A stretch of 64,000 nucleotides of DNA, taken from an uncultured Alphaproteobacteria bacterium. Its GTDB lineage: Bacteria > Pseudomonadota > Alphaproteobacteria > RF32 > CAG-239. The stretch is taken from contig CAKQLF010000001.1 of the NCBI GenBank assembly GCA_934254585.1, positions 28,093 through 92,092 on the forward strand, read 5' to 3'. Within the stretch, counting starts at the first letter, position 1. Each line of letters begins with the position of its first letter. Under the pieces are notes generated by a model. It saw only the letters and a program-made list of their open reading frames with translations, did not search any database and was not told the DNA's origin. The position numbers and the translations under genes are program-made. Shown here piece after piece: positions 695-37,106 of this stretch.

Positions 695-3600
695 CTATAT
701 CTCCTTTACTAATGTTACGCCGGCAATTGCCCTGATTGACGACAATAATGAACCATCGGCCAATGCATAGCCGTTTTTCAGCTCTATACGAATATTCCAA
801 TCTTCAATTTCAGGCTTGATATAAACTTTATTGGTGCCATATCTTTCGTGTGACAGAACTTGACGCAACGGGCGCACTGCCTCAACATTGTTTATAACAA
901 TAACCAGTCCTTTGGAATTTTCGGTAATTTCCTCGTCTAATGTTTTTATAACGTTAAACAACATCCGCGGCGGCATATCTTCGGCCTGCTTTTCTATTTT
1001 TACTTTGACATATAACGGCAAACCGCTGTTTATGGCGTGTTCAAATTTAGTTATGCCGTCTGAAAATAACAACCCCTCATAGGCTGAAGTTGTGTCAGAA
1101 AGCTTAACAAATGCAAAAGGTTTTCCGCTTTTACTGATTTTACGCTGAAAACTTTGCAGGCAACCGGCTAAGTTGGCATAAATAACATCTCCGGTTTTTA
1201 TACCTTTAACCGCTTCGGCATAAGTGCTGACACCCAAGCGTTCCATACTTTCCTTATACACATCAAGCGGGTGCGCCGACAAATAAAATCCAATGGCTTC
1301 CGCCTCAAGCTGCAAGCGTTCCAAAGCCGGAAAATCAGGTTTATCCTGCAACTTAACTTTAGCATTAAGCTCCTCATTGCCAAACAAAGAAGTCTGATTA
1401 CTGTTCTTTAATTCGGCCGCTGCCGCCATGTGACGCATTATATTTTCAATATTGGCGAAAAGCTTGCCGCGATTGGTGTCCAGACAATCAAAGGCTCCGG
1501 CTTTTATTAATTGCTCCAACTGCTTTCGGTTGATTTGTTTAACGTCCACACGATGAATAAAGTCGGAAACATCGCGGAATTTGCCGTTTTTTTCACGCTC
1601 CTCCACAATGGCGTTCATATTCGCTTCACCGACGCCTTTTAAGCCGGCCAAAGCAAAGCGGATATTGTTTCCCTCTACCTTAAACAGGGCGTTAGACATA
1701 TTGATATCCGGCGGCAAAACTTTATAGCCCATATTTTTAAACTCTTCGGTATAGAACAAAACCTTGTCGGTGTTTGTAATATCAAAGTCCATAATGGCGC
1801 ACATAAATTCAACCGGATAGTGGGCTTTTAAATACGCTGTTTGGTAAGAAATAAGCGAATATGCCGCGGCGTGGGATTTGTTAAAACCATAAGACGCAAA
1901 CTTTTCCATTTGGTCAAAAATAGTTTTTGCCACTTCACCATCAATACCTTTTTTGATAGCTCCTTCGGTAAACATTTCGCGCTGATGCGGAATTTCATCG
2001 CGCATTTTTTTACCCATAACCTTACGCAATTTATCGGCACCGCCCAAAGTGTAACCACCCAAAACCTGAGCAATTTTCATCACTTGCTCTTGGTAGACCA
2101 TAATTCCGTAGGTTTCACCGAGAATCGGCTCTAAATCAGGGTGTAGATATTTAATTTCTTCTCGCCCGTGCTTGCGGTTTATGTAAGTTGGAATATTATC
2201 CATCGGCCCCGGACGATATAGAGAAATAACCGCAATTAAATCTTCAAATCGGTCAGGTTTGATTTGCTTCATAACATCACGCATACCCGACGATTCAAAC
2301 TGGAAAATCGCACTGGTGTTGCCTTCCTGCATCAACTCGTATGTCGGTTTATCGTCTAAAGGAACCGATGCCATATCCAATTCAATACCGTGCGTTTTTT
2401 TAACCCAATCCACCGCGCGCTTGATAACCGTAAGGGTTTTCAACCCCAAAAAGTCGAACTTAATCAGACCGGTTTCTTCCACAAATTTCATATCATATTG
2501 AGTAACCGGCATTTCCGCCCGCGGATCTTTATAGAGCGGCACCAGTTGGTCAAGCGGTCTGTCGCCGATAACCACGCCGGCCGCGTGCATACCTGAGTTG
2601 CGGTATAACCCCTCCAACTTCATCGCAATATCAAACAATTTGTTAATCTGCGGGTCTTTTACGCGCATTTCTTCCAGTTCGGGCACTTGGTCAAGAGCCT
2701 CTTGCAAAGTCGGATTTTTTCCTCCTTGCCCAGGCGGAATCATTTTTGAAATTCTGTCAGCCTGACTATACGGCATTTGCAACACGCGCGCCACATCGCG
2801 AATAACGGCCTTAGACTGCAATTTACCATAAGTGATAATTTGCGCAACGTGATCGTAACCATATTTTTTTTGCACATATTCAATGGTCTTATGACGATTT
2901 TCCTGACACAAATCCACGTCGAAATCCGGCATATTAACACGTTCCGGATTCAAAAAACGCTCAAACAGTAAATCCAAACGAATCGGGTCAAGGTCGGTAA
3001 TTTTCAGTGCCCAAGCCACAATGGAACCGGCACCGGAACCTCGCCCCGGCCCAATCGGAACGCCGTGCGTTTTCGACCAACGAATGAAGTCCGACACAAT
3101 AAGGAAATACCCTGGGAAACCCATTTTCTTTATAACGCTTAACTCGTAATCCAAGCGTTCGTAATAGTGTCTGTCTGTTTCCGCCCGCTCTTCAGCCGTC
3201 ATTCCCTCGTGATAGACTTGGATTTTCATTCGCTCGTTTAAGCCTTTGTAGGCTTCTTCGGTAATAAACTCGTCTTGCGTTTTGCCATCAGGGCAAATGA
3301 AAATCGGTAGCAGCGGCTCCATTTTAGAAGACAGATAGTTGCAACGTTTAGCAATATTCACCGTATTTTCAACAGCTTCCGGAATATCCTTAAACAATTC
3401 CAACATTTCTGTTTCACTACGCCAATGGTTCCCCGGCAAATATTTGCGGCGGTTTTCATTCGCCACATATTCTCCGGCAGCAATACAGCATAGCGCGTCG
3501 TGCGCCTCATACATATTTTCATCAAAAAAGAACACATCGTTTGTGGCCACCAGCGGAATATTGTGCTTGTAAGCAAACTCCAAAAACACCGGTTCGGTTT

Positions 3601-4168
3601 TCTTTTCTTCTTCATAGCCCACGCGGGAAATTTCAATATAGAGTCTGTCGCCGAAAATTTCTTTATATTCAAGCAGTTTTTTTTCGGCTTCATCTTTACG
3701 ATTTTGCAAAATCAGACGACCGATAGGCCCCTCATAACCACCGGTAAGACATATTAAGCCCTCGTTAAAATCCCGCAAGTTTTGCATATTAAGCTGTGGC
3801 GTGTCGCTGTGTTCCATATTATCCAGATAGTAGCGGCGAAACATTTTCATAATAGATTTGTAGCCGTTTTCATTTTTAACTAAAAGGATAATCCTATCCG
3901 GCGGAAGTTCTTTGCCTTTTGACAGAGCTAAATTTTCCGAATCTTCGTTATGCACACAAAGTTCCGAGCCGAGAATCGGCTTAACGCCTTCATCTGAGGC
4001 ATATTTGGAAAAACATTTTCCCCCAAACAAATTGCCTCTATCGGTAATGGCGCAACTTGGTATTCCTAAATCGTGCATTTTGTGCACCAACTTTGGCACC
4101 AACATTGCTCCCAATGACAGCGAATAAGCGGTGTGAACGCGTAAGTGTATAAATTTTGGCTCGGACAT
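695..4168 (-). CDS. dnaE: DNA polymerase III alpha subunit
   Basis: 1157-aa ORF. N-terminal PHP domain (HLRVHTAYSL), followed by the palm/fingers region and an OB-fold-bearing C-terminus. Length and motifs are typical of DnaE. Confidence 0.95.
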   Translation of the reverse strand: MSEPKFIHLRVHTAYSLSLGAMLVPKLVHKMHDLGIPSCAITDRGNLFGGKCFSKYASDEGVKPILGSELCVHNEDSENLALSKGKELPPDRIILLVKNENGYKSIMKMFRRYYLDNMEHSDTPQLNMQNLRDFNEGLICLTGGYEGPIGRLILQNRKDEAEKKLLEYKEIFGDRLYIEISRVGYEEEKKTEPVFLEFAYKHNIPLVATNDVFFFDENMYEAHDALCCIAAGEYVANENRRKYLPGNHWRSETEMLELFKDIPEAVENTVNIAKRCNYLSSKMEPLLPIFICPDGKTQDEFITEEAYKGLNERMKIQVYHEGMTAEERAETDRHYYERLDYELSVIKKMGFPGYFLIVSDFIRWSKTHGVPIGPGRGSGAGSIVAWALKITDLDPIRLDLLFERFLNPERVNMPDFDVDLCQENRHKTIEYVQKKYGYDHVAQIITYGKLQSKAVIRDVARVLQMPYSQADRISKMIPPGQGGKNPTLQEALDQVPELEEMRVKDPQINKLFDIAMKLEGLYRNSGMHAAGVVIGDRPLDQLVPLYKDPRAEMPVTQYDMKFVEETGLIKFDFLGLKTLTVIKRAVDWVKKTHGIELDMASVPLDDKPTYELMQEGNTSAIFQFESSGMRDVMKQIKPDRFEDLIAVISLYRPGPMDNIPTYINRKHGREEIKYLHPDLEPILGETYGIMVYQEQVMKIAQVLGGYTLGGADKLRKVMGKKMRDEIPHQREMFTEGAIKKGIDGEVAKTIFDQMEKFASYGFNKSHAAAYSLISYQTAYLKAHYPVEFMCAIMDFDITNTDKVLFYTEEFKNMGYKVLPPDINMSNALFKVEGNNIRFALAGLKGVGEANMNAIVEEREKNGKFRDVSDFIHRVDVKQINRKQLEQLIKAGAFDCLDTNRGKLFANIENIMRHMAAAAELKNSNQTSLFGNEELNAKVKLQDKPDFPALERLQLEAEAIGFYLSAHPLDVYKESMERLGVSTYAEAVKGIKTGDVIYANLAGCLQSFQRKISKSGKPFAFVKLSDTTSAYEGLLFSDGITKFEHAINSGLPLYVKVKIEKQAEDMPPRMLFNVIKTLDEEITENSKGLVIVINNVEAVRPLRQVLSHERYGTNKVYIKPEIEDWNIRIELKNGYALADGSLLSSIRAIAGVTLVKEI

Positions 4169-4217
4169 AATGTCAATCGGGAGACTCAGTTTAGAGTCCC
4201 CCTCTCTCTCGGTTTAA

Positions 4218-4463
4218 TTATTTGTTGTCTTGACCGGCTTTCTGATAGCAGCGGCAATGACAAATACCATCGCGCTCAATATCACTGCGGCAAAGCTCGG
4301 AAATGCAATATCTTTTTTCGTTTGTTCCGTCACAAGGACAACGCTGCCATTCGGCATCGCCAAACATCATATTTTTTGCTTTTGCAATTTTTTCTATGTT
4401 CTGTGTCGGATAATAACCGGCTTTTTTGCAGTTTTCTAACATTTTTTCTAAAATCGTAGCCAT
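4218..4463 (-). CDS. ferredoxin-thioredoxin-reductase catalytic-subunit-like Cys-rich protein
   Basis: 81-aa ORF with SD aggaga 7 nt upstream. Cys pattern CPC...C....C....CHC resembles the FTR catalytic beta chain. Confidence 0.45.
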   Translation of the reverse strand: MATILEKMLENCKKAGYYPTQNIEKIAKAKNMMFGDAEWQRCPCDGTNEKRYCISELCRSDIERDGICHCRCYQKAGQDNK

Positions 4464-4473
4464 TTTGTTTCTC

Positions 4474-5388
4474 CTATCTTTGTTCTAAAATATCTAAAAG
4501 TGTGCTTAATTCAGCAGGTGTGTTGTAGTGCAATGTTATACTACCTTTACCTTTTTTTCCAGCATTTATTTTAACTTTAAGTTTTAATTTTGCTTCCAAA
4601 TCCGCCATAATTCTTTCAATATCTTTATCAATGGTTTTTTGTGCTTTCGGAGCAATATTTTTTACATCAAGTTCTTTGTAATTTGCAGCCAAGGCTTCCG
4701 CCTCGCGCACGCTTAAACCCTCGTTGATAATTTTTGCGGCGAGCTCCGCGGCATTATCTTTACCGACTAAAGTTCTGGCGTGACCGGCTGACAATTTATT
4801 TTCTTTTATCATTTGCTTTATTTCGTCCGGCAAGCTCAAAAGTCGCAAAGTGTTGGCAATGTGACTACGAGATTTGCCAATGACTTTGGCTATAACCTCT
4901 TGGGTGTATTCATATTCACTCATCAAGCGGTTAAGCCCCTCAGCCTCTTCTATTGCCGAGAGATTTTCACGCTGTAAATTTTCAATTAAGGCAATTTCAA
5001 GCGTTTCGCTATCCGTCAAATTTTTAATAACAGCTGGCACAGATTCTAAGCCGGCCAATTTAGCGGCTCGCCAACGACGCTCACCGGCAATAATTTCATA
5101 TTTTTCGCCTTTTTTACGCAAAAGAAGTGGCTGCAGAATACCTTTTTCTTTTATGGATTGCGCCAATGTTTCCAATGCTTCCTGATTAAATTCCGTTCGC
5201 GGTTGAAAACTGCAAGGCTCAATATTTTCTATATTTATTTCATTGGAGTTTTCGCTTTTAAATACACTGTTCTCCACAAAACTATTAACATCTGCAGTTT
5301 CATCATCTAAATTTAAGTTCAGGTCTTCATCACCCAACAAAGCCTCAAGACCGCGTCCCAGTCCGAACTTTTTATTATTTGTATTCAT
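4474..5388 (-). CDS. parB: chromosome partitioning protein ParB
   Basis: ParB/Spo0J motifs (GERRWRAA, HTH region KSRSHIANTLRLL). Lies immediately downstream of parA. Confidence 0.9.
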   Translation of the reverse strand: MNTNNKKFGLGRGLEALLGDEDLNLNLDDETADVNSFVENSVFKSENSNEINIENIEPCSFQPRTEFNQEALETLAQSIKEKGILQPLLLRKKGEKYEIIAGERRWRAAKLAGLESVPAVIKNLTDSETLEIALIENLQRENLSAIEEAEGLNRLMSEYEYTQEVIAKVIGKSRSHIANTLRLLSLPDEIKQMIKENKLSAGHARTLVGKDNAAELAAKIINEGLSVREAEALAANYKELDVKNIAPKAQKTIDKDIERIMADLEAKLKLKVKINAGKKGKGSITLHYNTPAELSTLLDILEQR

Positions 5389-5389
5389 T

Positions 5390-6157
5390 TTACAACTCCT
5401 TTTCCCTTTTTAAGACTTCTTTAGCCAATTGTATATAGGCTTGAGCTCCGGCACTTTTGAAATCATATATCAAAATAGGCTTTCCGTGCGATGGAGCTTC
5501 CGCAATACGCACACTACGCGGTATAACCGTTTGATACACCTTGTCGCCAAAATATTTTCTAACATCGGCTTCAATCATCTGACTTAAATTATTTTGTTTG
5601 CTGTACATCGTCAAAATAATTCCCTGCAAACTAAGCGAGGGATTAAAATTACGCTTGATAGCGTTAATATTTTTCATTAAATCAGCCAAGCCTTCCAAGG
5701 CTAAAAACTCACATTGCAATGGCACCATAACCGAATTTGAACTGACTAAGGCGTTAATTGTAATCAAGTTCAAAGATGGAGGGCAATCAATCAGCACATA
5801 ATCATAGATATGGGCTAAATTGCTCAACGCTTTTTTCAAAACAAACTCACGGTGTTCAACCTCAACCAATTCAATTTCAGCCGCGGCTAAATCAGGAGAA
5901 GAAGGAATCATATCAAATCGCGGTAAATCCGTATGAATTACGGCATCTTTGACATCACATTTTCCAATCAACACATCGTATGATGAAAAATGCTCTTTTT
6001 GCTTTGGGATTCCCATTGAGGTTGTGGCGTTGCCCTGCGGGTCAAAGTCTATAACCAAAACTTTCTTTTCAATTGCCGACAACGCTGTGGCAATATTAAT
6101 TGTGGTTGTTGTTTTTCCCACACCGCCTTTACGGTTCGCAACAGAAATTATTTTCAT
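5390..6157 (-). CDS. parA: chromosome partitioning ATPase ParA
   Basis: Deviant Walker A KGGVGKTT, 255 aa, in a parA-parB operon. Confidence 0.9.
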   Translation of the reverse strand: MKIISVANRKGGVGKTTTTINIATALSAIEKKVLVIDFDPQGNATTSMGIPKQKEHFSSYDVLIGKCDVKDAVIHTDLPRFDMIPSSPDLAAAEIELVEVEHREFVLKKALSNLAHIYDYVLIDCPPSLNLITINALVSSNSVMVPLQCEFLALEGLADLMKNINAIKRNFNPSLSLQGIILTMYSKQNNLSQMIEADVRKYFGDKVYQTVIPRSVRIAEAPSHGKPILIYDFKSAGAQAYIQLAKEVLKREKEL

Positions 6158-7691: not shown

Positions 7692-9571
7692 TTTTTTAAA
7701 TAACCTAAAATCGCGGTTACAGCAGCCGGTGTTACACCGCGAATGCGAGCGGCCTCGCCAATTGTTTTTGGGCGCACCAGAGTAAATCTTTGAATCATTT
7801 CCGTAGAAAGACCACCGATTTTACTATAATCTATATCTTCCTTTATTTCCAAATTTTCATCACGCTTAAACACCGCAATATCTTCATATTCACGTTTCAA
7901 ATATCCAGAATATTTTGCATCAATCTCAACCTGTTCAAACACATCGTTTTCAACCTTGCCGGTTTCCGGAAACAGTGTAGAAATTGTTTCACGTGAAACA
8001 TCTTGATAGCCAAGCAAATCTTTTAACGTTTTTTTACCATTATGTTTTACGGTTATTCCCAGTTTTTCAATTTCCGGATATGACACAATTTTATCACAGC
8101 AAAACTCGTTAAACTTGGATATTTTTTCTTCTTTTATTTTAAATACACTGTATCTATTTTCTGAAACACAGCCAATATTGTAACCTAATTCCGTCAAACG
8201 ACTGTCCGCATTGTCGGCGCGCAACACCAAACGATATTCCGAACGAGAAGTAAACATTCGATATGGCTCATCAACGCCCTTGGTTATCAAATCATCAACC
8301 ATAACTCCGATATATCCCTGACTACGGTCAATTTTTAATTCCTTATTTTTATTTAGAGCAAACAGTGCCGCATTTACGCCGGCAAGCAATCCTTGGGCTG
8401 CCGCCTCTTCGTATCCGGTTGTTCCATTAATTTGTCCGGCCAAATATAATCCTCTGGTCTTTTTTACAGCCAAACAATGGTCAAGTTCTTGCGGGTCGAC
8501 ATAATCATATTCAATGGCATAGGCATAGCGCAAAATTTCAACATTTTCCAAACCCTTCATTGTGTGAATAAATTCATCTTGCACATCGGCGGGCAAAGAG
8601 GTTGAAATTCCATTTGGATAGACAACATTTGTGTCGTAACCCTCGGGCTCCAAAAATATCTGATGAGATGTTCTATCCGCAAAACGTACCAACTTATCTT
8701 CAATACTCGGGCAATAGCGCGGACCTTTACCGGTTATCAATCCGGAAAACAAAGCGCATTTAGAAAAATTATCACGAATAATCTTATGGGTAGTTTCGTT
8801 TGTATATGTAACACCGCAATCAATTTGCTTATTTGAAAGATTTTTTGTTAAAAATGAAAATGGTATCGGATTTTTATCGCCGCTTTGCTTTTCCAAAACA
8901 GCCCAATTAATCGTATCACCATTTAAGCGTGAAGGCGTTCCGGTTTTTAAGCGACCAAGTTTTAACCCCAAAGATTTTAAATACGGTGTTACGCCAGTAC
9001 AGGAAATATCTCCGACACGGCCTCCGATACTAGTTTGATGACCGGTAAACATTATGCCGTTCAAAAATGTTCCTGTTGTTAAAACAACAGCCTTTGCTCT
9101 GTATTCCGAATTGTCAGCCAACTGCACTCCGCAAACCTGTTTATTTTCATCAATAAGCAAACCTTCAACCGCTCCCTCTTTTAATTCAAGATTCGGAGTA
9201 TTAGCCAGTGCCTCTTGCATATATTTTTTGTAAAGACTCCTGTCTGCTTGAGCGCGAGGGCCTCGCACGGCCGGACCTTTGGAAAGATTCAACATTCTAA
9301 ATTGGATTCCGGCTTTATCAATAACTTGCCCCATTAAACCGTCAAGCGCGTCAATTTCTCTCACCAGATGACCTTTTCCCAAACCGCCAATTGCCGGATT
9401 GCACGACATTTCACCAATAGTGGATATTTTATGCGTTATTAATAAGGTTTTTGCTCCGGTTCTAGCCGCGGCCGCACAAGCTTCACATCCGGCATGACCG
9501 CCGCCGACAACAATAACATCAAATATATTATTCATCTTTTCCCTCATAAATTTTTTTATAATAAAGCACAA
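7688..9571 (-). CDS. mnmG: tRNA uridine-5-carboxymethylaminomethyl modification enzyme MnmG (GidA)
   Basis: FAD-binding [14 protein letters not shown], about 620 aa, conserved GidA core. The true start is probably internal (MNNIFDV). Confidence 0.95.
7985..8000. promoter_or_regulatory. parS site (perfect) inside mnmG
   Basis: Read directly. Confidence 0.9.
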
Positions 9572-9657: not shown

Positions 9658-11031
9658 TTATTTGCCAATGCAAAAACTACTGAAAATTTTATCTAAAATT
9701 TCATCAACTTCAACCTGTCCGGTAATTTTGCCAATAGCGCGGCAAGCCAGACGAATATCCTCGGCAGCCAATTCAATTTCTTTATGCAAATTAAAGCGAG
9801 ATAAATTTTGCAAACATTCGCCCAACGCCTCTTTATATCGCTGACGAGTTATAAGTTGGGCAGTGCCTTTTTCATACATATCCTGAAATGTTTTATAAAT
9901 AGTTTCGGTTATAACGGAAATATTTTTACTTTCTTTGGCCGATATTAAAGCACAACCATTTTTTATTAAGTCGGCTTTTTCAGCTTCATTAATCTTATCC
10001 ATTTTGTTAGCCACAAACAAATAAGGAACTTCTATTTTATTTAAGTATTCCGAAAATATTTCCGGCGTATCCACCGCGGCGTCAAACATAAACAAACAAA
10101 AATCAGCTTCGGCAATTTTATCCTTAGCTAATTTGACACCAATTTGCTCTATTTCATCAGCAGTTTCCCGCAAACCGGCCGTATCTGAAAAAATAACCGG
10201 AAAGCCTTGGATATCGACATAAGTTTCAATCACATCACGCGTTGTACCGGCAATGTCTGAAACAATAGCCACGTTGCGTTTAACAATAGCGTTTATCAAG
10301 CTTGATTTTCCGGCGTTGGTCGGTCCGGCAATCACAACCTTAAAGCCATCACGCAAGCGTTCTTCTATTTTATTATCCTGAATATGCTTTTCTATTTCCT
10401 CAGATATTTTAAATACACCATTTTCAATTTTAAATACAGTGTCCTCAGGTATATTTTCATCAGGAAAATCAATATACGCCTCAATATATGACAGTATCGA
10501 CACCAAACGCGAACGCCAATCATTATACAAATTAAACAGATTTCCGCCCATTTGCTGCAAAGCAACTTTTTGCTGCAAAGAAGTTTCAGCATCAATCAAA
10601 TCAGCCAAGCCATCAGCCTCGGTCAAATCCATTTTACCATTATAAAAAGAGCGGCGTGAAAATTCTCCGGGTTCAGCCAACCGAAAATCAGGCAAAGCCG
10701 ATAAAGCGGTGAGAAAGCTTCTTATAACTGCCTTCGAACCGTGGCAGTTTATTTCAACAGTGTCTTCACCGGTAAAAGAAGCCGGAGATTTAAAAGCCAC
10801 TAACAAAGAATTATCCAATGTTTCACGTGAAACAGGATTATAAAACTTTGTTAAATACATTTTACGGCTGACAATTTTAGAAACATCTAAATCCGTCATT
10901 TGTGAAATAACGTCAAAAGCTTTTGCTCCGGAAATTCGAATTACGGCAACTCCGGACTTTCCAAAAACCGTTGACAAGGCATAAATTGTTTTGTTATCCA
11001 TTTTTATCTTTCTTCTGTTATTAAAATTCAC
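9658..11031 (-). CDS. mnmE: tRNA modification GTPase MnmE (TrmE)
   Basis: G-domain motifs GPTNAGKSSL, DTAG and NKMD, with C-terminal CIGK. Likely start is at the internal MDNKTIYA. Confidence 0.9.
   Translation of the reverse strand: MNFNNRRKIKMDNKTIYALSTVFGKSGVAVIRISGAKAFDVISQMTDLDVSKIVSRKMYLTKFYNPVSRETLDNSLLVAFKSPASFTGEDTVEINCHGSKAVIRSFLTALSALPDFRLAEPGEFSRRSFYNGKMDLTEADGLADLIDAETSLQQKVALQQMGGNLFNLYNDWRSRLVSILSYIEAYIDFPDENIPEDTVFKIENGVFKISEEIEKHIQDNKIEERLRDGFKVVIAGPTNAGKSSLINAIVKRNVAIVSDIAGTTRDVIETYVDIQGFPVIFSDTAGLRETADEIEQIGVKLAKDKIAEADFCLFMFDAAVDTPEIFSEYLNKIEVPYLFVANKMDKINEAEKADLIKNGCALISAKESKNISVITETIYKTFQDMYEKGTAQLITRQRYKEALGECLQNLSRFNLHKEIELAAEDIRLACRAIGKITGQVEVDEILDKIFSSFCIGK
10819..10834. 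promoter_or_regulatory. parS site (perfect) inside mnmE
   Basis: Read directly. Confidence 0.9.
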
Positions 11032-11153: not shown

Positions 11154-13064
11154 TTAACGACCGTGATTTATTCGTTGCAGACAATTATGTTGCGAATTTG
11201 CTGAATTATTCGGTTGCCTAACATTTAAGCATTTTTGCAAATCAGCTGCCGGAATATCTTTCATATTTTTCAACAACGTGAAATCTGTCGGTAAATTTCC
11301 TTTCATTTGACGCTTGTTCACAACACAAGCAACATAAAGTTTTAAGGCTTGTTCTTTAGTTAGGGTATCCTTAAAAATTATCGGCTTGTTTTTATTACTC
11401 GGTTCCTGTAATAATTTTATATACGCATTATATTCAGCATCTTTATTTAAGTTCACCTTGTTTTTTGCCTTATAAGATATTATGCTTTCATTTACGGCAA
11501 ATGTGTATTCGTTTTCTGTGCTTGCTAATTCTTTATATCCATCAATTTTCTGCCAATATTCTCTTAAATCTTTACTCCATTTGACAGGCTGAGGAGTCAC
11601 TATTGGCCGCGGCTGAACAAAATCGTCCGGCAAAGAGGAAATTTCCAAACCGTTTATTTGATTAATAAAACGCGGATTGTGAAGATTATCTCGCATTAAT
11701 CTTTTCGCTTCCGGCACTAACTCCGGATTAATTATTCCCCTGCTCTTATCACGATTATATTCCGTCAAACGGCGAGACAATTTTTGTTGAGACGGAATAA
11801 TTATATTTTGCCTTGCATCTGCGTCTATTTTAACCTCTTGTTCGGGACGAATCAGACTTGCTAAATTCTTTTCTTCGTAAGCTCCGGTTTGCGGATTATA
11901 TAACTTATAATGATATAAAAGCGAACGGCGAAGAAAAAATTCTTTTCTGTCATCATCACTTGGAACCGTAAGTGGAACTTTTTCCATTCGAATTAGTAAA
12001 TTATCTTTGAACTGTTGAGAATCATAGTCTTTATGATGATTTCTCTCGAATGATTTAAATGCCACATCCAGTAAAACCGGCAAATTTTGCACATATTGCA
12101 AACGCTGTCCGCGCGGCAAACCACTAACCGTCCGCACAAGCTCCTTAGCCTCGATATCAAACATCGTGAAATCATCAAGATTGCCGTTTTTCATATAGAC
12201 ATTTACCGCATTGATAATTTGCGAAAGATAGGCACTGCGTTCGTCCTCCACCTCCAGACGATAATAATCTTCAACCGACATCCTTTTTTCGGTGTCTTTC
12301 AGACTTAATCCCGCCATAAGAGCGTTATTCTTAATGTGTGTAAGCTCGTGCTTCAAAATCAATAGACGATGATTAACTGTGTTATATTCGTTTGCATAAA
12401 TATTAAATAAACTTCTCTCACGGGAATCACGAATCGAACTTACAAACTGAAAAACACTTAACGTCGGATTATTGCGCTTATTTCTTTCCCAAGAAGCAAT
12501 CAATCGCTGCATCGTAATATATTCTGCCGGCGGCAAAGTAAAATGATTTCGCACTAAAATAATTTTACGTTTATCCGTATTGACTGAAGCACGGCGTTTT
12601 GAAAAGTCTCGTATATCATATTCTTGACTAACATTGTCAAAATAAACATCATATAAATTATCTTCAGGCTCTATCTGAAAACCAAGATTTTTGATTAGTG
12701 GTGAAATTTCCATATCATCAATATGATTATCAAAGTGCAAAGTACAAGGTTTAGAGCGTATGTGTGCCGGAATATTATCGGTTGATACCTGATTTTCATA
12801 GTTATACTGTTGCTTGCGCAAATCCATACGGAATATTTCTTTATTTATAAAATTAGTATTATCAACGTCAAAGGAATCATACATTTCTTGTCCGGAATGT
12901 TGGTAGCGGACAAACAAATTAAAAAATTCAGATTGCGTGCGCTGTTCGCAAAATTGTTTATAGGCCAAAACCTTACGTCGCTTTTCAGCATCATTATTAT
13001 AGTCCAAGTTGAAAACGATAATACTATTATCTGCCGTATGCAGCAACAATTTTTCTTTGGTCAT
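11154..13064 (-). CDS. hypothetical protein with HExxH zinc-metallopeptidase-like motif (effector-like)
   Basis: 636 aa, no signal peptide. Motif LILKHELTHIKN with downstream acidic residues (SVEDYYRLEVEDE). No other recognisable domain. Inserted between mnmE and typA. Confidence 0.55.
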   Translation of the reverse strand: MTKEKLLLHTADNSIIVFNLDYNNDAEKRRKVLAYKQFCEQRTQSEFFNLFVRYQHSGQEMYDSFDVDNTNFINKEIFRMDLRKQQYNYENQVSTDNIPAHIRSKPCTLHFDNHIDDMEISPLIKNLGFQIEPEDNLYDVYFDNVSQEYDIRDFSKRRASVNTDKRKIILVRNHFTLPPAEYITMQRLIASWERNKRNNPTLSVFQFVSSIRDSRERSLFNIYANEYNTVNHRLLILKHELTHIKNNALMAGLSLKDTEKRMSVEDYYRLEVEDERSAYLSQIINAVNVYMKNGNLDDFTMFDIEAKELVRTVSGLPRGQRLQYVQNLPVLLDVAFKSFERNHHKDYDSQQFKDNLLIRMEKVPLTVPSDDDRKEFFLRRSLLYHYKLYNPQTGAYEEKNLASLIRPEQEVKIDADARQNIIIPSQQKLSRRLTEYNRDKSRGIINPELVPEAKRLMRDNLHNPRFINQINGLEISSLPDDFVQPRPIVTPQPVKWSKDLREYWQKIDGYKELASTENEYTFAVNESIISYKAKNKVNLNKDAEYNAYIKLLQEPSNKNKPIIFKDTLTKEQALKLYVACVVNKRQMKGNLPTDFTLLKNMKDIPAADLQKCLNVRQPNNSANSQHNCLQRINHGR

Positions 13065-13126
13065 TTTAGTTATCCCGTTAAATTTATAAGCACATTAGCA
13101 TATTCTTGACAAAAATTCAACAGAAT

Positions 13127-13690
13127 TTATACCCGACCATTTTCACGTTTTTGAACTTGCTGATTTTGCAGCTGATATTCTTGATAATGATAATCAAGTT
13201 CATATCGCACATTGCGAAGCAAACTTTCGTCTTTTGGAGCTCTGTCAATAGCTTGCAGCAAAGAGTTTCCTCCCTTGCTGTTTAATATTGATTGCATCAT
13301 ATTGCGCTCGGTAGCGTCCAACACCATATATAGATTTATAACCAAATTATTTAAATATGTATTACCGGCTAAAGGCGGCTTATCGCCATATCTATCCGCA
13401 AGAAAATCGGCAAATTTTTGGCGTATAGCCTCCTGCTCTCGTTTTTTACCAAGTTCAATCTCATTATGTTTTACCACAGCCTTTTGCCACATTTCTATAC
13501 GATTGTTCAAGGTTAACCCCAAAGATTTGTATGATTCCATACGCTGAGCCGGATTCAAACACTCTTCACACTTTTGCGGCAAACCAAAATGATTTTGCAA
13601 TGATTTTCTAAACAGCTCGCAAAATGTGTTCTTAGCCTTCAAAAAAGGGCAATATTCCGGACATAATTTATGATTTTCTTGCTCTGACAT
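13127..13690 (-). CDS. hypothetical Cys-rich protein
   Basis: The track ORF starts at a TTG (13720). The better start is ATG 13690 with SD gggaga 6 nt upstream. N-terminus carries CPEYCP...C...CEEC, a zinc-finger-like arrangement. It sits upstream of the HExxH gene on the same strand. Confidence 0.5.
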   Translation of the reverse strand: MSEQENHKLCPEYCPFLKAKNTFCELFRKSLQNHFGLPQKCEECLNPAQRMESYKSLGLTLNNRIEMWQKAVVKHNEIELGKKREQEAIRQKFADFLADRYGDKPPLAGNTYLNNLVINLYMVLDATERNMMQSILNSKGGNSLLQAIDRAPKDESLLRNVRYELDYHYQEYQLQNQQVQKRENGRV

Positions 13691-13742
13691 ATCATTCTCC
13701 CTATTTTCAGGGTAACGCAAAAATGCTTAATTTTCAATAAAT

Positions 13743-13768
13743 AAAAGCACCTTTCGGTGCTTTTTTAA
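13743..13768. terminator. terminator after typA (bidirectional)
   Basis: agcacc-tttc-ggtgct flanked by A and T runs. Confidence 0.75.
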
Positions 13769-13769
13769 T

Positions 13770-15620
13770 TTATTCCATAGCTTCCGGTTTAGCTCGCTTA
13801 CGGGCAATAGGATCCAAAATTCGTTTTCTTAAACGCAATGATTTCGGAGTAACCTCCAAAAGCTCGTCAGCCTGAATATAAGCCAAAGCCTGTTCCAAAC
13901 TCAATTTACGAGGCGGAATCAAATCTATGGCTTCATCTTTGCCGGCGGCGCGGATATTGGTCAATTGCTTAGATTTTGTCGGGTTAACTTCAATATCGTT
14001 ATATTTTGTATGTTCACCGATAATCATACCAACATACACCGGACTATTGTGCTCAACAAACATCGGGCCGCGGTCTTGCAGTTTCCACAAAGAATAAGCA
14101 ATTGCCTGACCGTTTTCGCTGGAAATCATCACCCCGTTGCGACGATCTTCAATTTCACCCTTATACGGCTCAAAAGCATAGAAAATACGGTTCATAACAC
14201 CGGTTCCGCGTGTATCTGTCAAAAATTCCGAATGATAACCAATCAAACCGCGGGAAGGAGCGTGGAAAATCAAACGCACTTTATTACCGACTTGAGACGG
14301 AATCATTTCTACCAATTCCGCACGGCGTTTGCTTAATTTTTCTACCACCGCGCCAGAAAATTCTTCATCTACGTCAACCACAACTTCTTCAACCGGCTCT
14401 AAAAGCTGACCATTTTCATCGCGTTTCATAATAACGCGCGGACGGGAAATTGAAAGTTCAAAGCCTTCGCGACGCATAGTTTCAATCAAAACACCAAGCT
14501 GCAACTCACCGCGACCGGCCACTTCAAAAGTGTCTGAATTATCGGTGCGAGAAATTTTAAGCGCGATATTACCTTCGGCTTCTTTTTCCAAACGTGCCCA
14601 AATCACACGGGATGTAACTTTATCACCTTCCTTGCCGGCCAAAGGCGAATCATTCACAGAAAAAGTCATTGCCAATGTCGGCGGGTCAATCGGCTGAGCT
14701 TTGATAAAATCTTTAACATCAACGTCTAAAGCGCAAATAGTGTCGGCAACCGTGCCTTTAACAATTCCGGCAACAGCAACAATATCTCCGGCGTGAGCCG
14801 AATCCAAAGCCACTCTTTCCAATCCTTTATAGGCCATAATTTTAGTAATTTTAGCCCGCTCTACTTCGCCACGCTCGTTAATAACTTTTACCGCATCGTT
14901 AACCTTAACGCTGCCGCTCTGAATCTTACCGGTCAAAATACGACCGACAAACTTATCAGATTCCAAAGTTGTCGCCAACATTCTAAATGGTTTATCAGGC
15001 TCGCAAACCGGCTCGCTGACATAAGACACAATGGTTTCAAACAGCGGCGTTAAATCTTTATGTTCATCACTAAGCTCGCGAACAGCCCAACCATTGCGGC
15101 CTGAAGCGTATAAAATAGGAAAATCCAATTGTTCATCACTTGCATTCAAGCTGACAAACAAGTCAAAGATTTCATTCAAAACTTCATCAGGGCGAGCGTC
15201 CGGCTTATCGGCTTTATTAATAACAACTATCGGTTTTAAGCCGATTTTTAAAGCTTTTCCCAACACAAATTTCGTTTGCGGCATCGGACCTTCAGAGGAG
15301 TCAACCAACAAAACAACGCCATCAACCATTGACAAAATACGTTCAACTTCACCACCGAAGTCAGCGTGTCCCGGAGTATCTACAATGTTTATATGAGTAC
15401 CGTGCCAGTCAACCGAGGTGCATTTTGAAAGAATTGTAATACCTCTCTCTCTTTCCAATGCGTTGCTATCCATAACACAATCAGCCACTTTTTGATTATC
15501 ACGGAATGTACCGCTTTGCCGCAACAAACCATCAACCAAAGTTGTTTTACCGTGGTCAACGTGGGCAATTATGGCAATATTTCTCATACTCATAAATTTA
15601 TCCTTTTTTAAAATCTCCAC
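13770..15620 (-). CDS. typA: translational GTPase TypA/BipA
   Basis: AHVDHGKTTL, DTPGHADF and NKADK G-motifs, with an EF-G-like C-terminal domain. About 600 aa. Confidence 0.9.
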   Translation of the reverse strand: MEILKKDKFMSMRNIAIIAHVDHGKTTLVDGLLRQSGTFRDNQKVADCVMDSNALERERGITILSKCTSVDWHGTHINIVDTPGHADFGGEVERILSMVDGVVLLVDSSEGPMPQTKFVLGKALKIGLKPIVVINKADKPDARPDEVLNEIFDLFVSLNASDEQLDFPILYASGRNGWAVRELSDEHKDLTPLFETIVSYVSEPVCEPDKPFRMLATTLESDKFVGRILTGKIQSGSVKVNDAVKVINERGEVERAKITKIMAYKGLERVALDSAHAGDIVAVAGIVKGTVADTICALDVDVKDFIKAQPIDPPTLAMTFSVNDSPLAGKEGDKVTSRVIWARLEKEAEGNIALKISRTDNSDTFEVAGRGELQLGVLIETMRREGFELSISRPRVIMKRDENGQLLEPVEEVVVDVDEEFSGAVVEKLSKRRAELVEMIPSQVGNKVRLIFHAPSRGLIGYHSEFLTDTRGTGVMNRIFYAFEPYKGEIEDRRNGVMISSENGQAIAYSLWKLQDRGPMFVEHNSPVYVGMIIGEHTKYNDIEVNPTKSKQLTNIRAAGKDEAIDLIPPRKLSLEQALAYIQADELLEVTPKSLRLRKRILDPIARKRAKPEAME

Positions 15621-17087: not shown

Positions 17088-18046
17088 TATTCTAACCTCG
17101 AAAAATAATCATCTACTAATTTTAACGCAACGGACAACTCATTTAACTTTGTATATTGCTCACGAAACTTTTTGGCCTCGTATAAACTTTTGACATACCA
17201 ACCAATGTGTTTACGAGATATGGCCAATCCGCCTTTTTCACCATAATATTCAACAAGTAAATGCAAATGTTTAAGCAAAATTTGCTTAATTTCGGACACA
17301 GTCGGCACAGAAGAAAGTTTATTATGACGCAAATATTCATCTGTTTGGGCTAAAAGCCACGGATTTCCCAAAACCGCACGGCCAATCATCACTCCGTCAA
17401 CTCCGCTTTCTTCCATTCTTTGCTTAGCTTTTTGAGGAGAGTCAATGTCACCATTGCCGATTACAGGTATTTTTACGTTTTCTTTTACGACTTTTATGAT
17501 ATTCCAATCCGCTTCTCCGCTATATCCTTGAGAACGAGTTCTGCCGTGCACGGTGATATATGAAGCTCCGCTTTCTTCACACATTTTAGCAAACTCCACA
17601 GCGTTAACGTGTTCATTATCCCAACCTTTGCGAAATTTTACACTAACGCTGAGCGGCGTGGCTTTTGCCACTGTTTCAATAATTTTGGCAGCACGAGGCA
17701 AATCTTTCATCAACGCAGAACCGGCCTCATTGTTTACAATTTTTTTTACCGGACAGCCCATATTTATATCTAAAGAACGCGCTCCTAAATCCGCCACCAA
17801 TTTTGCCGCCTCGGCAAACAATTCGGCATCATTTCCCACCAATTGCACCACAACCGGATAGTTTTCTGACCGCACATCAGCAATTTGCCAACTCTTGGGG
17901 TTTTTACGTTGCAACGCATTTATGGCTGCCATTTCCGCATACATATTACCTTTTCCGCACGCGGCTAAAATTTCCCTAAACGGCCTGTCGGTAACTCCGG
18001 CCATCGGAGCCAAAAAAACTTGACTGTCAAACCCGCAAAATGACAT
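17087..18046 (-). CDS. dusB: tRNA-dihydrouridine synthase DusB (NifR3 family)
   Basis: LAPMAGVTDRPFR and DINMGCP TIM-barrel Dus signature. 319 aa. Confidence 0.85.
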   Translation of the reverse strand: MSFCGFDSQVFLAPMAGVTDRPFREILAACGKGNMYAEMAAINALQRKNPKSWQIADVRSENYPVVVQLVGNDAELFAEAAKLVADLGARSLDINMGCPVKKIVNNEAGSALMKDLPRAAKIIETVAKATPLSVSVKFRKGWDNEHVNAVEFAKMCEESGASYITVHGRTRSQGYSGEADWNIIKVVKENVKIPVIGNGDIDSPQKAKQRMEESGVDGVMIGRAVLGNPWLLAQTDEYLRHNKLSSVPTVSEIKQILLKHLHLLVEYYGEKGGLAISRKHIGWYVKSLYEAKKFREQYTKLNELSVALKLVDDYFSRLE

Positions 18047-29045: not shown

Positions 29046-32000
29046 ATGTACAAAAACGAGGGTAAAATGTTTAAAAATAAAGTTTTAACAGAAACAACAG
29101 GTTTTGTAACGTTGATTTGTGTGGGGACATTAGCTTTGCCTACCAACTTAAAAGCCTATTATTTGCCGCCTGTTTCTTTTTCGGAAATGTATCGTTTAGC
29201 GCAAAGCGGTGATGTTGAAGCTTTAAGAGCCTCCGTCAGACGAGGATTAAATATTGATACAATTAACCAAAACGGTGATACCGGACTTTGTATAGCCGCA
29301 CGACGCCGTGATACCTATACTTACAATGCCTTTCGCGCTGCGGGTGCAAACCCTCACCACCCTTGTGTGCAGCGTATTGATTATTATAACAATTTTTTAA
29401 TTTCATCAAAGGCCGTACCTATTACCGCCACACCAAGAGAAGCTTACGGAGCTATTGGAAAAGAAACTTATAAAATTTCTTCAACAACGTGGTGGATTTT
29501 GGGAGGTCTGGCCGTTGGCGGTGGAATTGCCGCTTTAGCTATGGGCGGAGGAGGAGGCGGCGGTTCGTCTTCGGAAAAATCCAGTGAAAGCGGTATTGGC
29601 AACGTTATCGGTTCATCAGGTTCAACCCTAAAAACAACCTCTGGTTTGGCCACAAACAGTTCAGAGCTTAGTGTTGGCAATTCAAACTTATCTGAAGTCG
29701 CCGGAATAAATTTTAATAAAGATGTTATTTCCGCTGCAAAATCTCTAAATATTGCATTAAAAGCTGAAAACGGAGGTCAATATATAAACACTGCTGACAC
29801 AACCATAAATATAGGAGCCGGAGGAGCCGGTTTGGTTGCAGTTAATAACAGTAAGGTTATAAACAACGGTTATTTAAAATCAACTGAAACAGATTTTAAT
29901 GCGTCGGCAGGTATGATGGCCAGTAATAACTCCGAAGCCATAAACAATGGCAAGGGAATTATTGACAGAACAGGCGCAAACGGAATTGATTTAAAATTTT
30001 CCGGTTATAATGAAAACAACCTGATTATAGGTATGTACGCCGACACAAGTTCAAAAATAACCAACAACGGAGATATAAAAGGTTCGGCCACTCAAGCTAT
30101 TTCGGACCCGACAGCCGAAAACAAAAACAATTCTGAAAATTCTTCATCTTCCGGTTCGACAACGGCCGGCACTACTTCCGGCAACGGCACAATTGTCGGT
30201 ATGGAAACAATGATTATTAATGCCAACAAAGATTCAAGCGGAAATACTATCTATGCCATCAACGGCGAAAATGGCAATATTTCGCTGAGTGCCGGTGAGG
30301 GTATATCTTCCGGTACAGATGTAAAGCTAAACATTATTGGTATGAGTAGTTTTTTAGATAACTCTTTTCTTAATGGCAGTAAAAATATCCAACGTGCGGA
30401 AAAATCTTTTCTGGAAAATAATGGAAATATAACTCTGAGCTATACCGGTTCTTATTCCGCCGCGGCAGAAAACACTTTACGCAAAGGTCTGGGCGGAATT
30501 GTCGGTATAAGAGCTGATGCCAACACTACCGGCGTCAATAACGGCAATATAAACATAAAATTGACCGACACCACATCGTCAGCTGCAAACTCGGTTGATG
30601 TGGCGGCAGCTATGCAATCTGTTCACAGCGGTAACATAACCAATAAAAATAACATTAAAATTTCAACTTCTTCCACCAATGCCCGTATAACTTATGGTAT
30701 GATGGCCGTAGAAGGTGATGGTTCTGTTTCCGGATTATATACGGAAAATAAGCAAACTTTAGATAATATCGGCACAATAATAATGAATGCCAGTAATTCT
30801 TATGCTATGGCCTCATTCAACGGCGGAACGGTCGTCAACAATGGAACAATTACTATCGGCAACCAAGATGACAGTAATTTTGGTAAAAACACGGCAATGT
30901 ACGGTTCCGGCGACAGCTTTTTAACAACATTGAAAAATAATGGAACTATAAACGTTTACTCACAAAATTCTTACGCTATGCGCAACGACTTTAGCGGCGG
31001 AAACGTTATTTCTAATGATGGAACAATTTTTATTTCAAATTCAGCCAAAGGTTCAAATGTTTTCGGCGGAAATTACAGTAAAATTATTAATAACGGAACA
31101 ATTCAATATAAACCTGCAGCCTCAAATACTTCTGGTTCCGGCGGTTCTTCAGGTTCATCAACAACCGGCGGAACAGTTGGTGACAATTTGAATTTAACCC
31201 TTAATCAACACGTTATGGACACTAAATCTCCAACCGTTTCTTCCGTCACTTCAAGCGGTAACGAACAAGCTCTTAACAACGGAACTATTATTACAGAAAC
31301 TTCAAACACCTCGGCCATGAGTGTAGAAACTTCACAAGGTTCCGCTATTAACAACAATATTATTACAGTTGCGGCAAATAAATTAAAAGATAATGGAGTT
31401 AATGCCGGAATGTATCTTTCTGCAGATACTGAAAAATCCGCGAAAATTGTCAATAACGGACAAATAAACATTAATACTTCTTATTCCGTGGGAATGGGTA
31501 GCGCGTCTTCATATAATTCAAGAATCGAAAACGCCGAAAACGGAGTTATCAACCTTAATGCCGATAAAACCATCGGTCTTTATGCTTCGGGAAACAGCAA
31601 CTTGTTTAATAATGGCACTATAAATGTAAATAGTGATGACAGTATTGCTATTTTTTCGGCCGGAACAGGAACAGGGCAAAACAGCGCGCTTATATCCAAC
31701 AGTATTATCAATGTCAAAGGGAAAAATGCCATTATCTATCAAATTAACGGCTCTGCGGAAATAAATCAAAACGGGCGCATTAATATTGACGATTCCGTAA
31801 AATCAACTGCCACTTATTACTATGTAAACGGTTCTTTAAACTTAAAGAATATTGATTTAGGTATTGATTCCGGAAATTTTGTAAAAATCGGCTCTAACGG
31901 CAACGGAACTTTATCTATAGATGAAACAACTTCACTTTCAATCAGCAAGCAAGGAACAATTATAAACGCTGAAAACGGAGCAACATCTATCATTAATAAA

Positions 32001-34087: not shown

Positions 34088-34475
34088 ATGTCTGATTAAA
34101 GGCATATTTTCTGCCGCTACAGACGTTTTTGCAAGTTTTTTCAGAAAAAATGACATATTAAAAAATAACAAGCACAGCACGAAACTGGCAGGCGGCACAA
34201 AGCAAGCAATTCTAGCACCAGTCATTATAGGCCCTGTGCCTAGAATCTTGTTGCAACAAGGTACTAACCTAGTCAATAAATTTGCCTTATTATTACATAA
34301 GTGTCGGTTCGCACAAGATTCTCGGGACAAGCCCGAGAATGACGGTAGCTGGAGGTGTTGGCTTAGTATTTGTTACAAGTTATTTAATTACCCCTCACCA
34401 GCAGACAAGTCTGCGACCGATAAGCCATCAAAGGGTTTGGATGTCGTGCGGCAATACGCCGTGCTTTTTGAACGA

Positions 34476-34495
34476 CGTGTACAGAGTAGTACACG
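34476..34495. repeat. palindromic element cgtgtac-N6-gtacacg (copy A)
   Basis: Perfect 7-bp arms. Lies within the conserved direct repeat cgacgtgtaca...agtacacgag. Confidence 0.8.
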
Positions 34496-34588
34496 AGTGA
34501 GAAAAGCGCAAGCAGTGAACGGACAGACAAAACATATTAGAAATCTTCTTCCGCAATGTGCGTCAGATGCGACGGGATTTTTAAGCGA

Positions 34589-34609
34589 CGTGTACAAAAA
34601 AAGTACACG
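34589..34609. repeat. palindromic element cgtgtac-N7-gtacacg (copy B)
   Basis: Same arms as copy A, about 113 bp downstream and 26 nt before the pilin-like GTG. Confidence 0.8.
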
Positions 34610-34634
34610 AGCGCGAAAATTCCTAGCAGATGGC

Positions 34635-35282
34635 GTGCAGTACGGTAGAAGTATGATTGAGATGTTGGGCGTTTTGGCCATCATCGCTGTTTTGAGCGTT
34701 GGCGGTATTGCCGGATATTCTAAGGCAATGGAAAAATTCAAACTTAATAAGGCTATGGATGAATACAGCTATCTTATTTATGGGTTGCTGGAACACTTAG
34801 ATGAAATTAAATATTCCACTAAATCCAGAGACGGAAATGATACTCCTGTTGTGGAATTAGCTAATAATTTGAATTTGGTTCCTCCGACATGGACAATGAT
34901 AGCAAACAATCTTAATGTTAGTCATAAAAATTTATTTGAAGACCCATATAACAATCTTTTATCTATTTACTCAAAAAACGGAAATTTGCGTTTTGATTTT
35001 ATTTTAGGCGGTTCGCAATTTAAGGACGAAGGTTCTTGGATAACTGAAAATTTTTCAACCAAATTCTGTATGGAATTGGTAAACAATGTTGTCAAACCAT
35101 TGCATTCTTCTTTGGAATTTTTATTTTTTTACAGGTCAAAAGGAAACTCATCCACTTTTTATGGTGATAAGAATTGTTCTTCCGGACGCAAATGTTTGAG
35201 TGATATCAGTATAAAAGAAGTGTATGATAATTGTAAACGTTGCTCAAAAAAAGAAGTTTGTTCAGTAACTATAGACTTTTAA
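34635..35282 (+). CDS. type IV pilin-like protein, paralog 1 (class-III-signal-like N-terminus)
   Basis: Track ORF 34236..35282. The start is reassigned to in-frame GTG 34635 because DNA conservation with paralog 2 begins exactly there (gtgcagtNcggNagaagtatgat). N-terminus ..G-RSMIEMLGVLAIIAVLSVGGIAGYSKAMEK has Glu at +5 of the hydrophobic segment. The C-terminal Cys motif CSSGRKCL...CKRC...EVCSV is shared with paralog 3. Confidence 0.55.
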   Translation: MQYGRSMIEMLGVLAIIAVLSVGGIAGYSKAMEKFKLNKAMDEYSYLIYGLLEHLDEIKYSTKSRDGNDTPVVELANNLNLVPPTWTMIANNLNVSHKNLFEDPYNNLLSIYSKNGNLRFDFILGGSQFKDEGSWITENFSTKFCMELVNNVVKPLHSSLEFLFFYRSKGNSSTFYGDKNCSSGRKCLSDISIKEVYDNCKRCSKKEVCSVTIDF

Positions 35283-36699: not shown

Positions 36700-36872
36700 T
36701 TTTACCTTAAATTTTGTATGATTGTTAAAAATAGAATGTGAAACATTGAAATGTTTGTTGGTTTGCTTATATAAAAGATGAAGTTAAAAGTCAAATGTTT
36801 TTTATGCACATTTCTTTTCCCTTATTAATATTTTAAATTTAAATAGTTATTGTTATATATGCTTGCGAAATA

Positions 36873-36894
36873 TGTGGATAAATTTATATCCACA
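36873..36894. promoter_or_regulatory. inverted pair of DnaA boxes (tgtggataa / atatccaca)
   Basis: The 9-mer TTATCCACA is perfect on the minus strand at 36873-81. It matches 8 of 9 on the plus strand at 36886-94. Confidence 0.6.
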
Positions 36895-36927
36895 GAGTTA
36901 ATAACATTAATAAATTGTTTAACAAAG

Positions 36928-36969
36928 TTAATAAATAGTTAATTATTCAATAAGTTAAAAAATAGTTAA
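36928..36969. promoter_or_regulatory. two CtrA-box-like sites TTAA-N7-TTAA within an 18-bp direct repeat AGTTAAnAAATAGTTAAT
   Basis: ttaataaatagttaa (36928-42) and ttaaaaaatagttaa (36955-69). The region is about 80% A+T with several gttaataa repeats. Confidence 0.35.
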
Positions 36970-37097
36970 TATTTTTTTCAACATATCTTAATAAAATTTA
37001 TCTGATGTTAATAAGTTTGTATAATATTTTTACAAAAAGTTGATACTTTGTTAAAAACTAAAGTTGTAATAAAGTTATGCACATTTTGGGGTGTGTT

Positions 37098-37106
37098 TGT
37101 GGATAA
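37098..37106 (-). promoter_or_regulatory. DnaA box (perfect TTATCCACA) 30 nt upstream of coaE
   Basis: tgtggataa read directly. Confidence 0.6.

Follow-up and report, generated by a model that had tools for sequence, protein, structure and literature searches.

Two neighbouring genes occupy the minus strand between typA (13770-15620) and mnmE (9658-11031) in a 64,000-nt segment of DNA from an uncultured member of the Alphaproteobacteria (contig CAKQLF010000001.1; the whole segment is referred to below as the window). The downstream gene encodes a 636-amino acid (aa) polypeptide, hereafter the large protein; the upstream gene encodes a Cys-rich polypeptide of 187 aa, hereafter the small protein. 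We propose that the large protein is a cytoplasmic, lineage-specific metallohydrolase of gluzincin-like type, equipped with a C-terminal docking domain that it shares with other proteins, and that the protein encoded upstream is zinc-ribbon-like and separately promoted. Taken as a whole, we give this proposal an even chance of being correct. The family is unannotated and structurally unmatched; its chemistry would most simply be of a known kind, that of the zincins.

The large protein contains exactly one HExxH motif (HELTH), with a Glu residue, E275, positioned 32 residues after H243. Taken alone, such a motif is weak evidence, since composition predicts 0.023 occurrences for a protein this long, and another open reading frame (ORF) of the window, specifying 364 aa (56637-57731, minus strand), also carries an HExxH (HETTH). 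We take the HELTH motif to be real because it is invariant among homologues. Among 119 aligned homologue clusters covering the motif region (H239, E240 and H243 were scored in 118), E275 is found in all 119, E240 in 118/118, and H239 and H243 in 116/118 each, with only two clusters showing a degenerate YExxK version. Core homologues are otherwise down to about 20-35% identical. The family signature reads HExxHxxN … (E/D)(D/N)E(R/K)(S/T) … YNP, and the helix pair of residues 233-293 is the most conserved stretch of the protein, with a mean pairwise identity of 0.575 as compared to 0.43 for the whole core. Judged from the alignment, this pattern is that of a functional metal or catalytic site and not of chance. 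The first-pass annotation, which had pointed to an HExxH motif followed by acidic residues, thus picked out what appears to be a genuine, conserved gluzincin-type site, with the acidic residue on the next helix.

A confident AlphaFold2 model of the full-length protein, built from a 21-sequence alignment, reached a predicted local distance difference test score (pLDDT) of 88.8 and a predicted template modelling score (pTM) of 0.73; when residues 105-470 were modelled alone, these values rose to 92.5 and 0.87, respectively. In the model, the HExxH motif, conserved among homologues, lies within an alpha-helix, as is expected of a zincin. H243 is located 10 residues before the loop that connects this helix to the next, and E275 11 residues after it. 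Judging from this secondary structure, H243 and E275 would face each other in an antiparallel hairpin, and H239, H243 and E275 may together ligate a metal. A four-stranded sheet (130-176) precedes the helices, so that the predicted order, sheet then HExxH helix then Glu helix, is the general layout of gluzincins. As modelled, the fold of the large protein appears to be unlike any solved structure, with no counterpart recognised in the PDB. Fold searches, which had been named at the outset as the way to refute a protease assignment, recovered no protease fold, and no incompatible fold either.

These features suggest the following scheme. The central module (about residues 105-470) would be a new, very divergent zincin-like metalloenzyme. 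A divalent metal, most likely zinc, would be held between H239 and H243 of one helix and E275 of the next, antiparallel one, with E240 as the general base. The protein would then be a gluzincin-type hydrolase, most likely a peptidase. Gluzincins (MEROPS clan MA(E)) include thermolysin (M4), the clostridial neurotoxin light chains (M27) and IrrE/ImmA (M78). The large protein is like them in having a helical HExxH with an invariant Glu about 30 residues downstream on the next helix, a beta-sheet ahead of the helices and an invariant general-base Glu. The spacing between HExxH and the Glu is 20 residues in thermolysin, about 27 in IrrE and 35 in botulinum neurotoxin A (BoNT/A), as compared to 32 here. 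However, no sequence or fold similarity of the large protein to any gluzincin is detectable, and its module differs from theirs in being bigger (about 365 residues) and mostly helical, in having a signature of its own and in being flanked by extra N- and C-terminal domains.

Family searches were uninformative throughout. Scans of both proteins against Pfam, NCBIfam, PADLOC and PHROGs gave nothing usable. With curated peptidase families, the Pfam scan returned only a sub-threshold match to DUF3858 and NCBIfam returned none at E ≤ 10, while PDB sequence searches, made with the single sequence or with profiles A3 and A2, yielded no relevant match. Both proteins lack a hydrophobic N-terminus and any transmembrane segment (maximum KD19 0.53 and 0.86). 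No paralogue of the large protein was found within the window, and the locus gave no match in Rfam or tRNA scans. The initial description of the locus, namely two ORFs, a single HELTH, a CPEYCP…C…CEEC cluster, and a 636-aa protein with no signal peptide or recognisable domain, was borne out on every count. The features discussed here and below are collected in Table 1.

Table 1. Position of the genes, protein regions and putative signals in the window.
Feature	Residues	Position	Strand	Description
Large gene		11154-13064	-	636 aa; stop codon at 11154-11156
N-terminal region, large protein	1-104	12753-13064	-	Two strands plus helices in the model; specific to full-length orthologues; mean pairwise identity 0.37
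Core metalloenzyme module (putative)	105-470	11655-12752	-	Predicted four-stranded sheet, then helical bundle
HELTH	239-243	12336-12350	-	H239, E240, H243: putative metal ligands and general base; middle of predicted helix 233-253
EDERS	273-277	12234-12248	-	E275 (12240-12242), putative third metal ligand; middle of predicted helix 264-293
C-terminal alpha/beta domain (predicted)	495-615	11220-11582	-	Common to many otherwise unrelated unannotated proteins
Tail, rich in N/Q/S/R	616-636	11157-11219	-	Predicted disordered, pLDDT <50; ends …INHGR
Small gene		13127-13690	-	187 aa, ATG at 13690; Cys-rich, N-terminal cluster of 4-5 Cys, remainder predicted helical
Cys cluster, small protein	C10-x3-C14-x9-C24-x16-C41-x2-C44	13559-13663	-	Putative zinc ribbon or metal site
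P1, putative promoter of the small gene		13709-13737	-	-35 TTGAAA (13732-13737), 17 nt, TGCG plus -10 TACCCT (13709-13714)
P2, putative promoter of the large gene		13092-13121	-	-35 TTGAAT (13115-13120), 17-nt spacer with invariant TTTTGTCAA, TGC plus -10 TAATGT (13092-13097)
Intrinsic terminator of the typA transcript (predicted)		13743-13764	-	9-bp stem (4 GC pairs), 4-nt loop, T-run; just upstream of the small gene

The large protein has a modular build. A word-indexed search returned 46 homologue clusters, 36-100% identical to it and all of about 630-680 aa, and an exhaustive profile search of 1.84 billion representatives gave 184 matches. Three architectures were distinguished. In the first (61 clusters), the N-terminal region, the core and the C-domain are found together; these proteins are the orthologues of the window gene. 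The second (48 clusters, 400-900 aa) has the core only, without the N-terminal region and with other extensions; the third (57 clusters, 300-1100 aa) has the C-domain only. No Pfam match was obtained for any of 20 representatives of these architectures (0/20). The C-domain, recognisable by the motif W…Y…Y…F.A…I.Y…V.V…EP.N…F…A..LY.AC…G..M.G..P, is the best-conserved domain of the window protein (0.51 mean identity). A word-indexed search with the C-domain profile found 4 fragments only, and a metagenome scan with a narrower C-domain alignment found only the orthologues of one C-domain protein. The tail beyond it is variable in sequence. Its last residue is Arg in 52 of 60 full-length clusters, and an Arg is present among the last three residues in 59/60; endings in …GGR, DGR or K are common among proteins with the C-domain only.

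Relatives with the core alone or the C-domain alone are encoded by single genes on the chromosome, surrounded by housekeeping genes (groESL, grpE-ftsK, leuS-holA/mreBCD). Neither a Cys-rich partner nor secretion genes were found near them in the contexts examined; the contigs of two core-only homologues (P0177 and P0179) are too short to inform on context. Dozens of unannotated proteins from the same bacteria carry the C-domain; its probable role in the enzyme is docking at a shared partner or site in the cell, and the disordered, Arg-ending tail may be a further recognition element. With the C-domain in at least 57 other unannotated clusters, and with the conserved C-terminal Arg, the module offers a handle on lineage-specific unannotated genes. 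One C-domain-only protein, P0220 (602 aa, ending in …QRGGR), is part of a conserved block of three unannotated genes (397, 602 and 400 aa; locus L046, 8737-13038, and loci L052-L059) located between leuS-lptE-holA and rodA-pbp2-mreDCB in related metagenome-assembled genomes (MAGs). It is syntenic and fast-evolving, with 60-70% identity as compared to 88-97% for its neighbours.

A scan of one genome per species identified 38 loci, 36 of which were informative for gene order. The titles of the records are mostly those of MAGs of uncultured Alphaproteobacteria (or Rhodospirillaceae, Azospirillaceae, Proteobacteria), with four Bacteroidaceae, Ruminococcus gnavus or Eubacteriales bins; visible sample names refer to human gut (Hadza, Nepal), to the rumen of deer, yak and sheep, and to the faeces of horses. 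To judge from the sequences retrieved, the family is limited to uncultured Alphaproteobacteria of gut and rumen, a lineage that is probably order RF32 of the GTDB. These are poorly known bacteria, common in the guts of non-industrialised humans and of ruminants.

The small gene, the large gene, mnmE and mnmG follow one another in this order in 30 of the 36 informative loci, and the large gene directly precedes mnmE in 32/35. Downstream, the block mnmE-mnmG-PHP-rsmG-parA-parB-dnaE is constant. On the upstream side, some loci have typA-trkA-dus and others secA with a pilin-like gene; this variation leaves the link to mnmE intact. In the window, the flanking genes are 84% (mnmE) and 98% (typA) identical to orthologues with Pfam matches to TrmE/MnmE and GTP_EFTU/BipA_C, respectively. 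The GC content of the two genes (0.358 and 0.378) is close to that of the window (0.369), and both GC and GC at third codon positions (GC3) match those of the flanks. No relatives of the pair were found by tblastn in phage and plasmid collections, and a mobile-element origin was dropped after this search. The distribution is not the one expected of accessory, horizontally mobile or island-borne genes. Because of the synteny, the flank-like GC and GC3 and the lack of phage or plasmid relatives in the collections searched, we regard the pair as an inherited, lineage-specific extension of the mnmE neighbourhood. The first-pass annotation had described the pair as inserted between mnmE and typA and foreign to the mnmE neighbourhood. 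Neither statement survives: within the lineage, mnmE-mnmG directly follows the pair in most loci, including those where typA is replaced by secA and the pilin-like gene, and its divergence tracks that of its neighbours.

Some further features of these loci were recorded. In L024, where the large gene is not beside mnmE, the next gene (3599-5485) encodes an unannotated 628-aa protein ending in …GDGRGGRN; in L023, also with the large gene away from mnmE, it is followed by the gene of an unannotated 175-aa protein (8175-8702) with an Arg-rich C-terminal region ending in …ATSRAGA. Genes of pilin-like appearance immediately precede the pair in L003 and L006 and also occur at the end of L045. The window itself contains two paralogues of type-IV-pilin-like appearance (34236-35282 and 58491-59111), which are 44% identical and have an N-terminus reading GRSMIEMLGVLAIIAVLSVGG and a Cys-rich C-terminus. 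At 36802-37106, in the rho/coaE intergenic region, DnaA boxes form a cluster of two perfect copies of TTATCCACA and three copies with one mismatch. As the GC skew switches from negative to positive exactly there, this cluster is probably oriC, which would place the gene pair about 24 kb from the origin.

The small protein begins with CPEYCPFLKAKNTFCELF…KCEEC. Its start codon is probably the ATG, even though a TTG at 13720 would extend the protein to 197 aa, since a GGGAGA sequence lies 6 nt 5' of the ATG and the homologues are all of 187-190 aa. The protein has 111 clusters of homologues (45-99% identity) and lacks any family or PDB match. Four of its cysteines (C10, C14, C24, C44) are invariant, and the fifth, C41, occurs in at least 90% of the sequences. 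Two conserved Cys knuckles, C10-x3-C14 and C41-x2-C44, are thus present, as in zinc ribbons, whose knuckles lie about 15-30 residues apart; no zinc-ribbon Pfam model matched the protein. Conservation thus favours the original assignment of a zinc-finger-like N-terminus, in the form of a putative 4-Cys, zinc-ribbon-like cluster.

Each of the two genes is preceded by a promoter-like block. GC hairpins equivalent to the typA terminator precede the small gene in relatives. Past the hairpin, the block TTTATTGAA(A/T)(A/T)TTAAGC.TTTTTGCG.TA…T is kept upstream of the small gene regardless of the upstream neighbour; it may be read as a -35 element, 17 nt and an extended -10 element (P1). The gap between the small and the large gene is 51-66 nt long, with a median of 61 (36 loci). 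In 24 aligned spacers, the sequence TTG(A/C)(T/A)TTTTTGTC(A/G)A directly after the stop codon, followed by TG.TAnnnT, is invariant. The corresponding block GTTGA(A/T)TTTTTGTCAA (13106-13121) occupies the same position in the 36 related loci and is unique in the window. This element is best read as a sigma-70-type promoter (P2). The invariant TTTTGTCAA in its spacer could be an operator, since conservation within a promoter spacer is not expected for a promoter alone. Two other readings of the spacer were rejected. An FNR/CRP-type box (TTGA-N7-TCAA) is one base off the TTGA-N6-TCAA consensus spacing, and TTGTCA as the -35 of the large-gene promoter would have the conserved -10 only 9 nt downstream; the -35 is TTGA(A/T)T. 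No terminators were found between the small gene, the large gene and mnmE. Given the promoter-like blocks and no intervening terminator, each gene could be transcribed alone, with read-through being possible. The small protein would then more likely be a regulator or an independent partner than an obligate subunit, because it appears to have its own promoter, is better conserved than the enzyme and can occur without it.

Several observations weigh against the proposal made at the outset. The proposed geometry of the three ligands is deduced from secondary structure alone. In the genomes compared, the large protein is only 35-55% identical to that of the window, as against 61-78% for the small protein, 68-84% for mnmE and 92-98% for typA. 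Evolution so much faster than that of the neighbours is unusual for a housekeeping enzyme. The two genes appear to have separate promoters, so that a functional link between them is putative. Finally, the question of whether the pair co-occurs in other genomes, raised in the first-pass annotation, has a mixed outcome: the two genes do occur together in most loci, but their association is not obligatory. No small gene precedes the large one in six of the 36 loci (L023, L024, L034, L037, L038 and L045), and a divergent small-protein homologue stands alone in L005.

Rapid evolution of the large protein relative to its neighbours also bears on a different reading, in which the protein is a secreted or translocated effector protease whose C-domain and basic, Arg-ending tail form an export signal and whose HExxH module cleaves a host or competitor protein. 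The general arrangement lends itself to this idea, as a C-terminal module of about 130 aa occurs on proteins with unrelated N-terminal parts and tails ending in …GR, GGR, DGR or K, and the family has expanded into many paralogous architectures. Such a layout resembles type IV secretion signals of the XVIPCD or BID-plus-tail type, found in Xanthomonas and Bartonella effectors, respectively, which also combine a C-terminal domain of about 130 residues, on unrelated N-terminal parts, with a basic tail. This resemblance is by architecture only. In addition, two eukaryote-like proteins, an EF-hand protein (25354-26097) and a pentapeptide-repeat protein (39753-40883), are encoded in the window, and another, with ankyrin repeats, is encoded in the relative L051. 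However, unlike the domain of type IV effectors, the domain shared here is internal and not terminal in many carriers; no secretion-system gene, of type IV or otherwise, is found in the 64 kb of the window or in the approximately 50 flanking regions inspected, and the protein has no Sec signal. In nearly every genome the gene keeps one and the same place within a block of core genes close to the origin, as opposed to the variable islands where effectors typically reside. It shows no compositional anomaly, has no phage or plasmid relatives in the collections searched and no homology to known effectors in the Pfam, NCBIfam, PDB and PADLOC/PHROGs scans. We therefore consider an effector role unlikely, and the data are weak as evidence for virulence or effector function.

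Equally unlikely, in our estimate, is a more radical version of the proposal, in which the protein would represent a new zincin-like clan with its own fold, and the C-domain and Arg tail would be the address label of an unrecognised sorting or export pathway. If true, this pathway would serve a repertoire of fast-evolving unannotated proteins in gut Alphaproteobacteria, with the 636-aa protein as one of the cargoes of a new system for effectors or localisation.

A somewhat smaller probability attaches to the view that the two genes form a regulator-protease module of the ImmR/ImmA or anti-sigma type, with the Cys-rich protein as a metal or redox sensor that is cleaved by the HExxH protein or controls it, possibly at TTTTGTCAA. 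The order of the two genes is indeed conserved, the small one coming first, and the gap between them is fixed at about 61 nt; the 4-Cys cluster of the small protein as well as the invariant block in the P2 spacer would suit such a device. As in ImmR/ImmA pairs, a gene for a small putative regulator is followed, on the same strand, by a gene with HExxH…E. The pairs differ, however, in that no helix-turn-helix (HTH), sigma/anti-sigma or Peptidase_M78 signature was detected here with Pfam or NCBIfam, no mobile element is involved, the promoters are apparently separate and the pairing is not obligatory, with either protein occurring without the other. Moreover, the intergenic motif is not repeated elsewhere in the window and the two proteins are conserved to very different degrees.

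Still less probable is that HExxH…E is a structural metal site or a relic and the protein a non-enzymatic scaffold, perhaps a lineage-specific cell-organisation factor encoded near oriC and parAB. This view would account for the failure of fold searches to recover an enzyme fold and for the existence of the two YExxK variants. It would also fit with the presence of the C-domain in long, charged, coiled-coil-like proteins encoded beside mreBCD/rodA or ftsK, and with the short distance (about 24 kb) of the locus from the DnaA-box cluster. Against it stands the Glu of the HExxH motif, kept in every cluster scored (118/118), as a purely structural site needs no general base; gene position alone is weak evidence.

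Least probable of all is a non-hydrolytic HExxH metalloenzyme that modifies a protein or peptide, such as a peptide hydroxylase that depends on Fe(II) and alpha-ketoglutarate, like ChlH, BpmH and PflC (PflC/PosC; IPR026337): no NCBIfam or Pfam profile matches the large protein even at E ≤ 10 (the TIGRFAM model of IPR026337 being assumed to be within the NCBIfam release); similarity to these hydroxylases does not exceed what unrelated helical bundles would be expected to show; the neighbours, which in the window as in relatives are typA, trkA, dus, mnmE, mnmG, rsmG and parAB, include no precursor of a peptide that is synthesized on the ribosome and modified after translation (RiPP), no radical-SAM enzyme and no transporter, with typA and mnmE as the immediate flanks; and an O2-dependent enzyme seems unlikely given the anaerobic habitat suggested by the gut and rumen hosts and by an Fe-hydrogenase in one relative.

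Returning to the gluzincin-like metallohydrolase, if the prediction holds, the large protein is a candidate for a new metallopeptidase family and possibly for a new clan. The practical value of the finding is modest until a substrate or a cellular role is found.

Two other genes of the window deserve mention. The gene at 18046-20157 precedes dus-trkA and is conserved there in relatives (56-88% identity); its 703-aa product lacks Pfam domains and gave no more than a weak match of ZorA/MotA-like type. A 1637-aa, BigA-like protein is encoded at 29046-33959; together with the EF-hand and pentapeptide-repeat genes, it forms a set of eukaryote-like or adhesin-type genes that may bear on the lifestyle of the bacterium.

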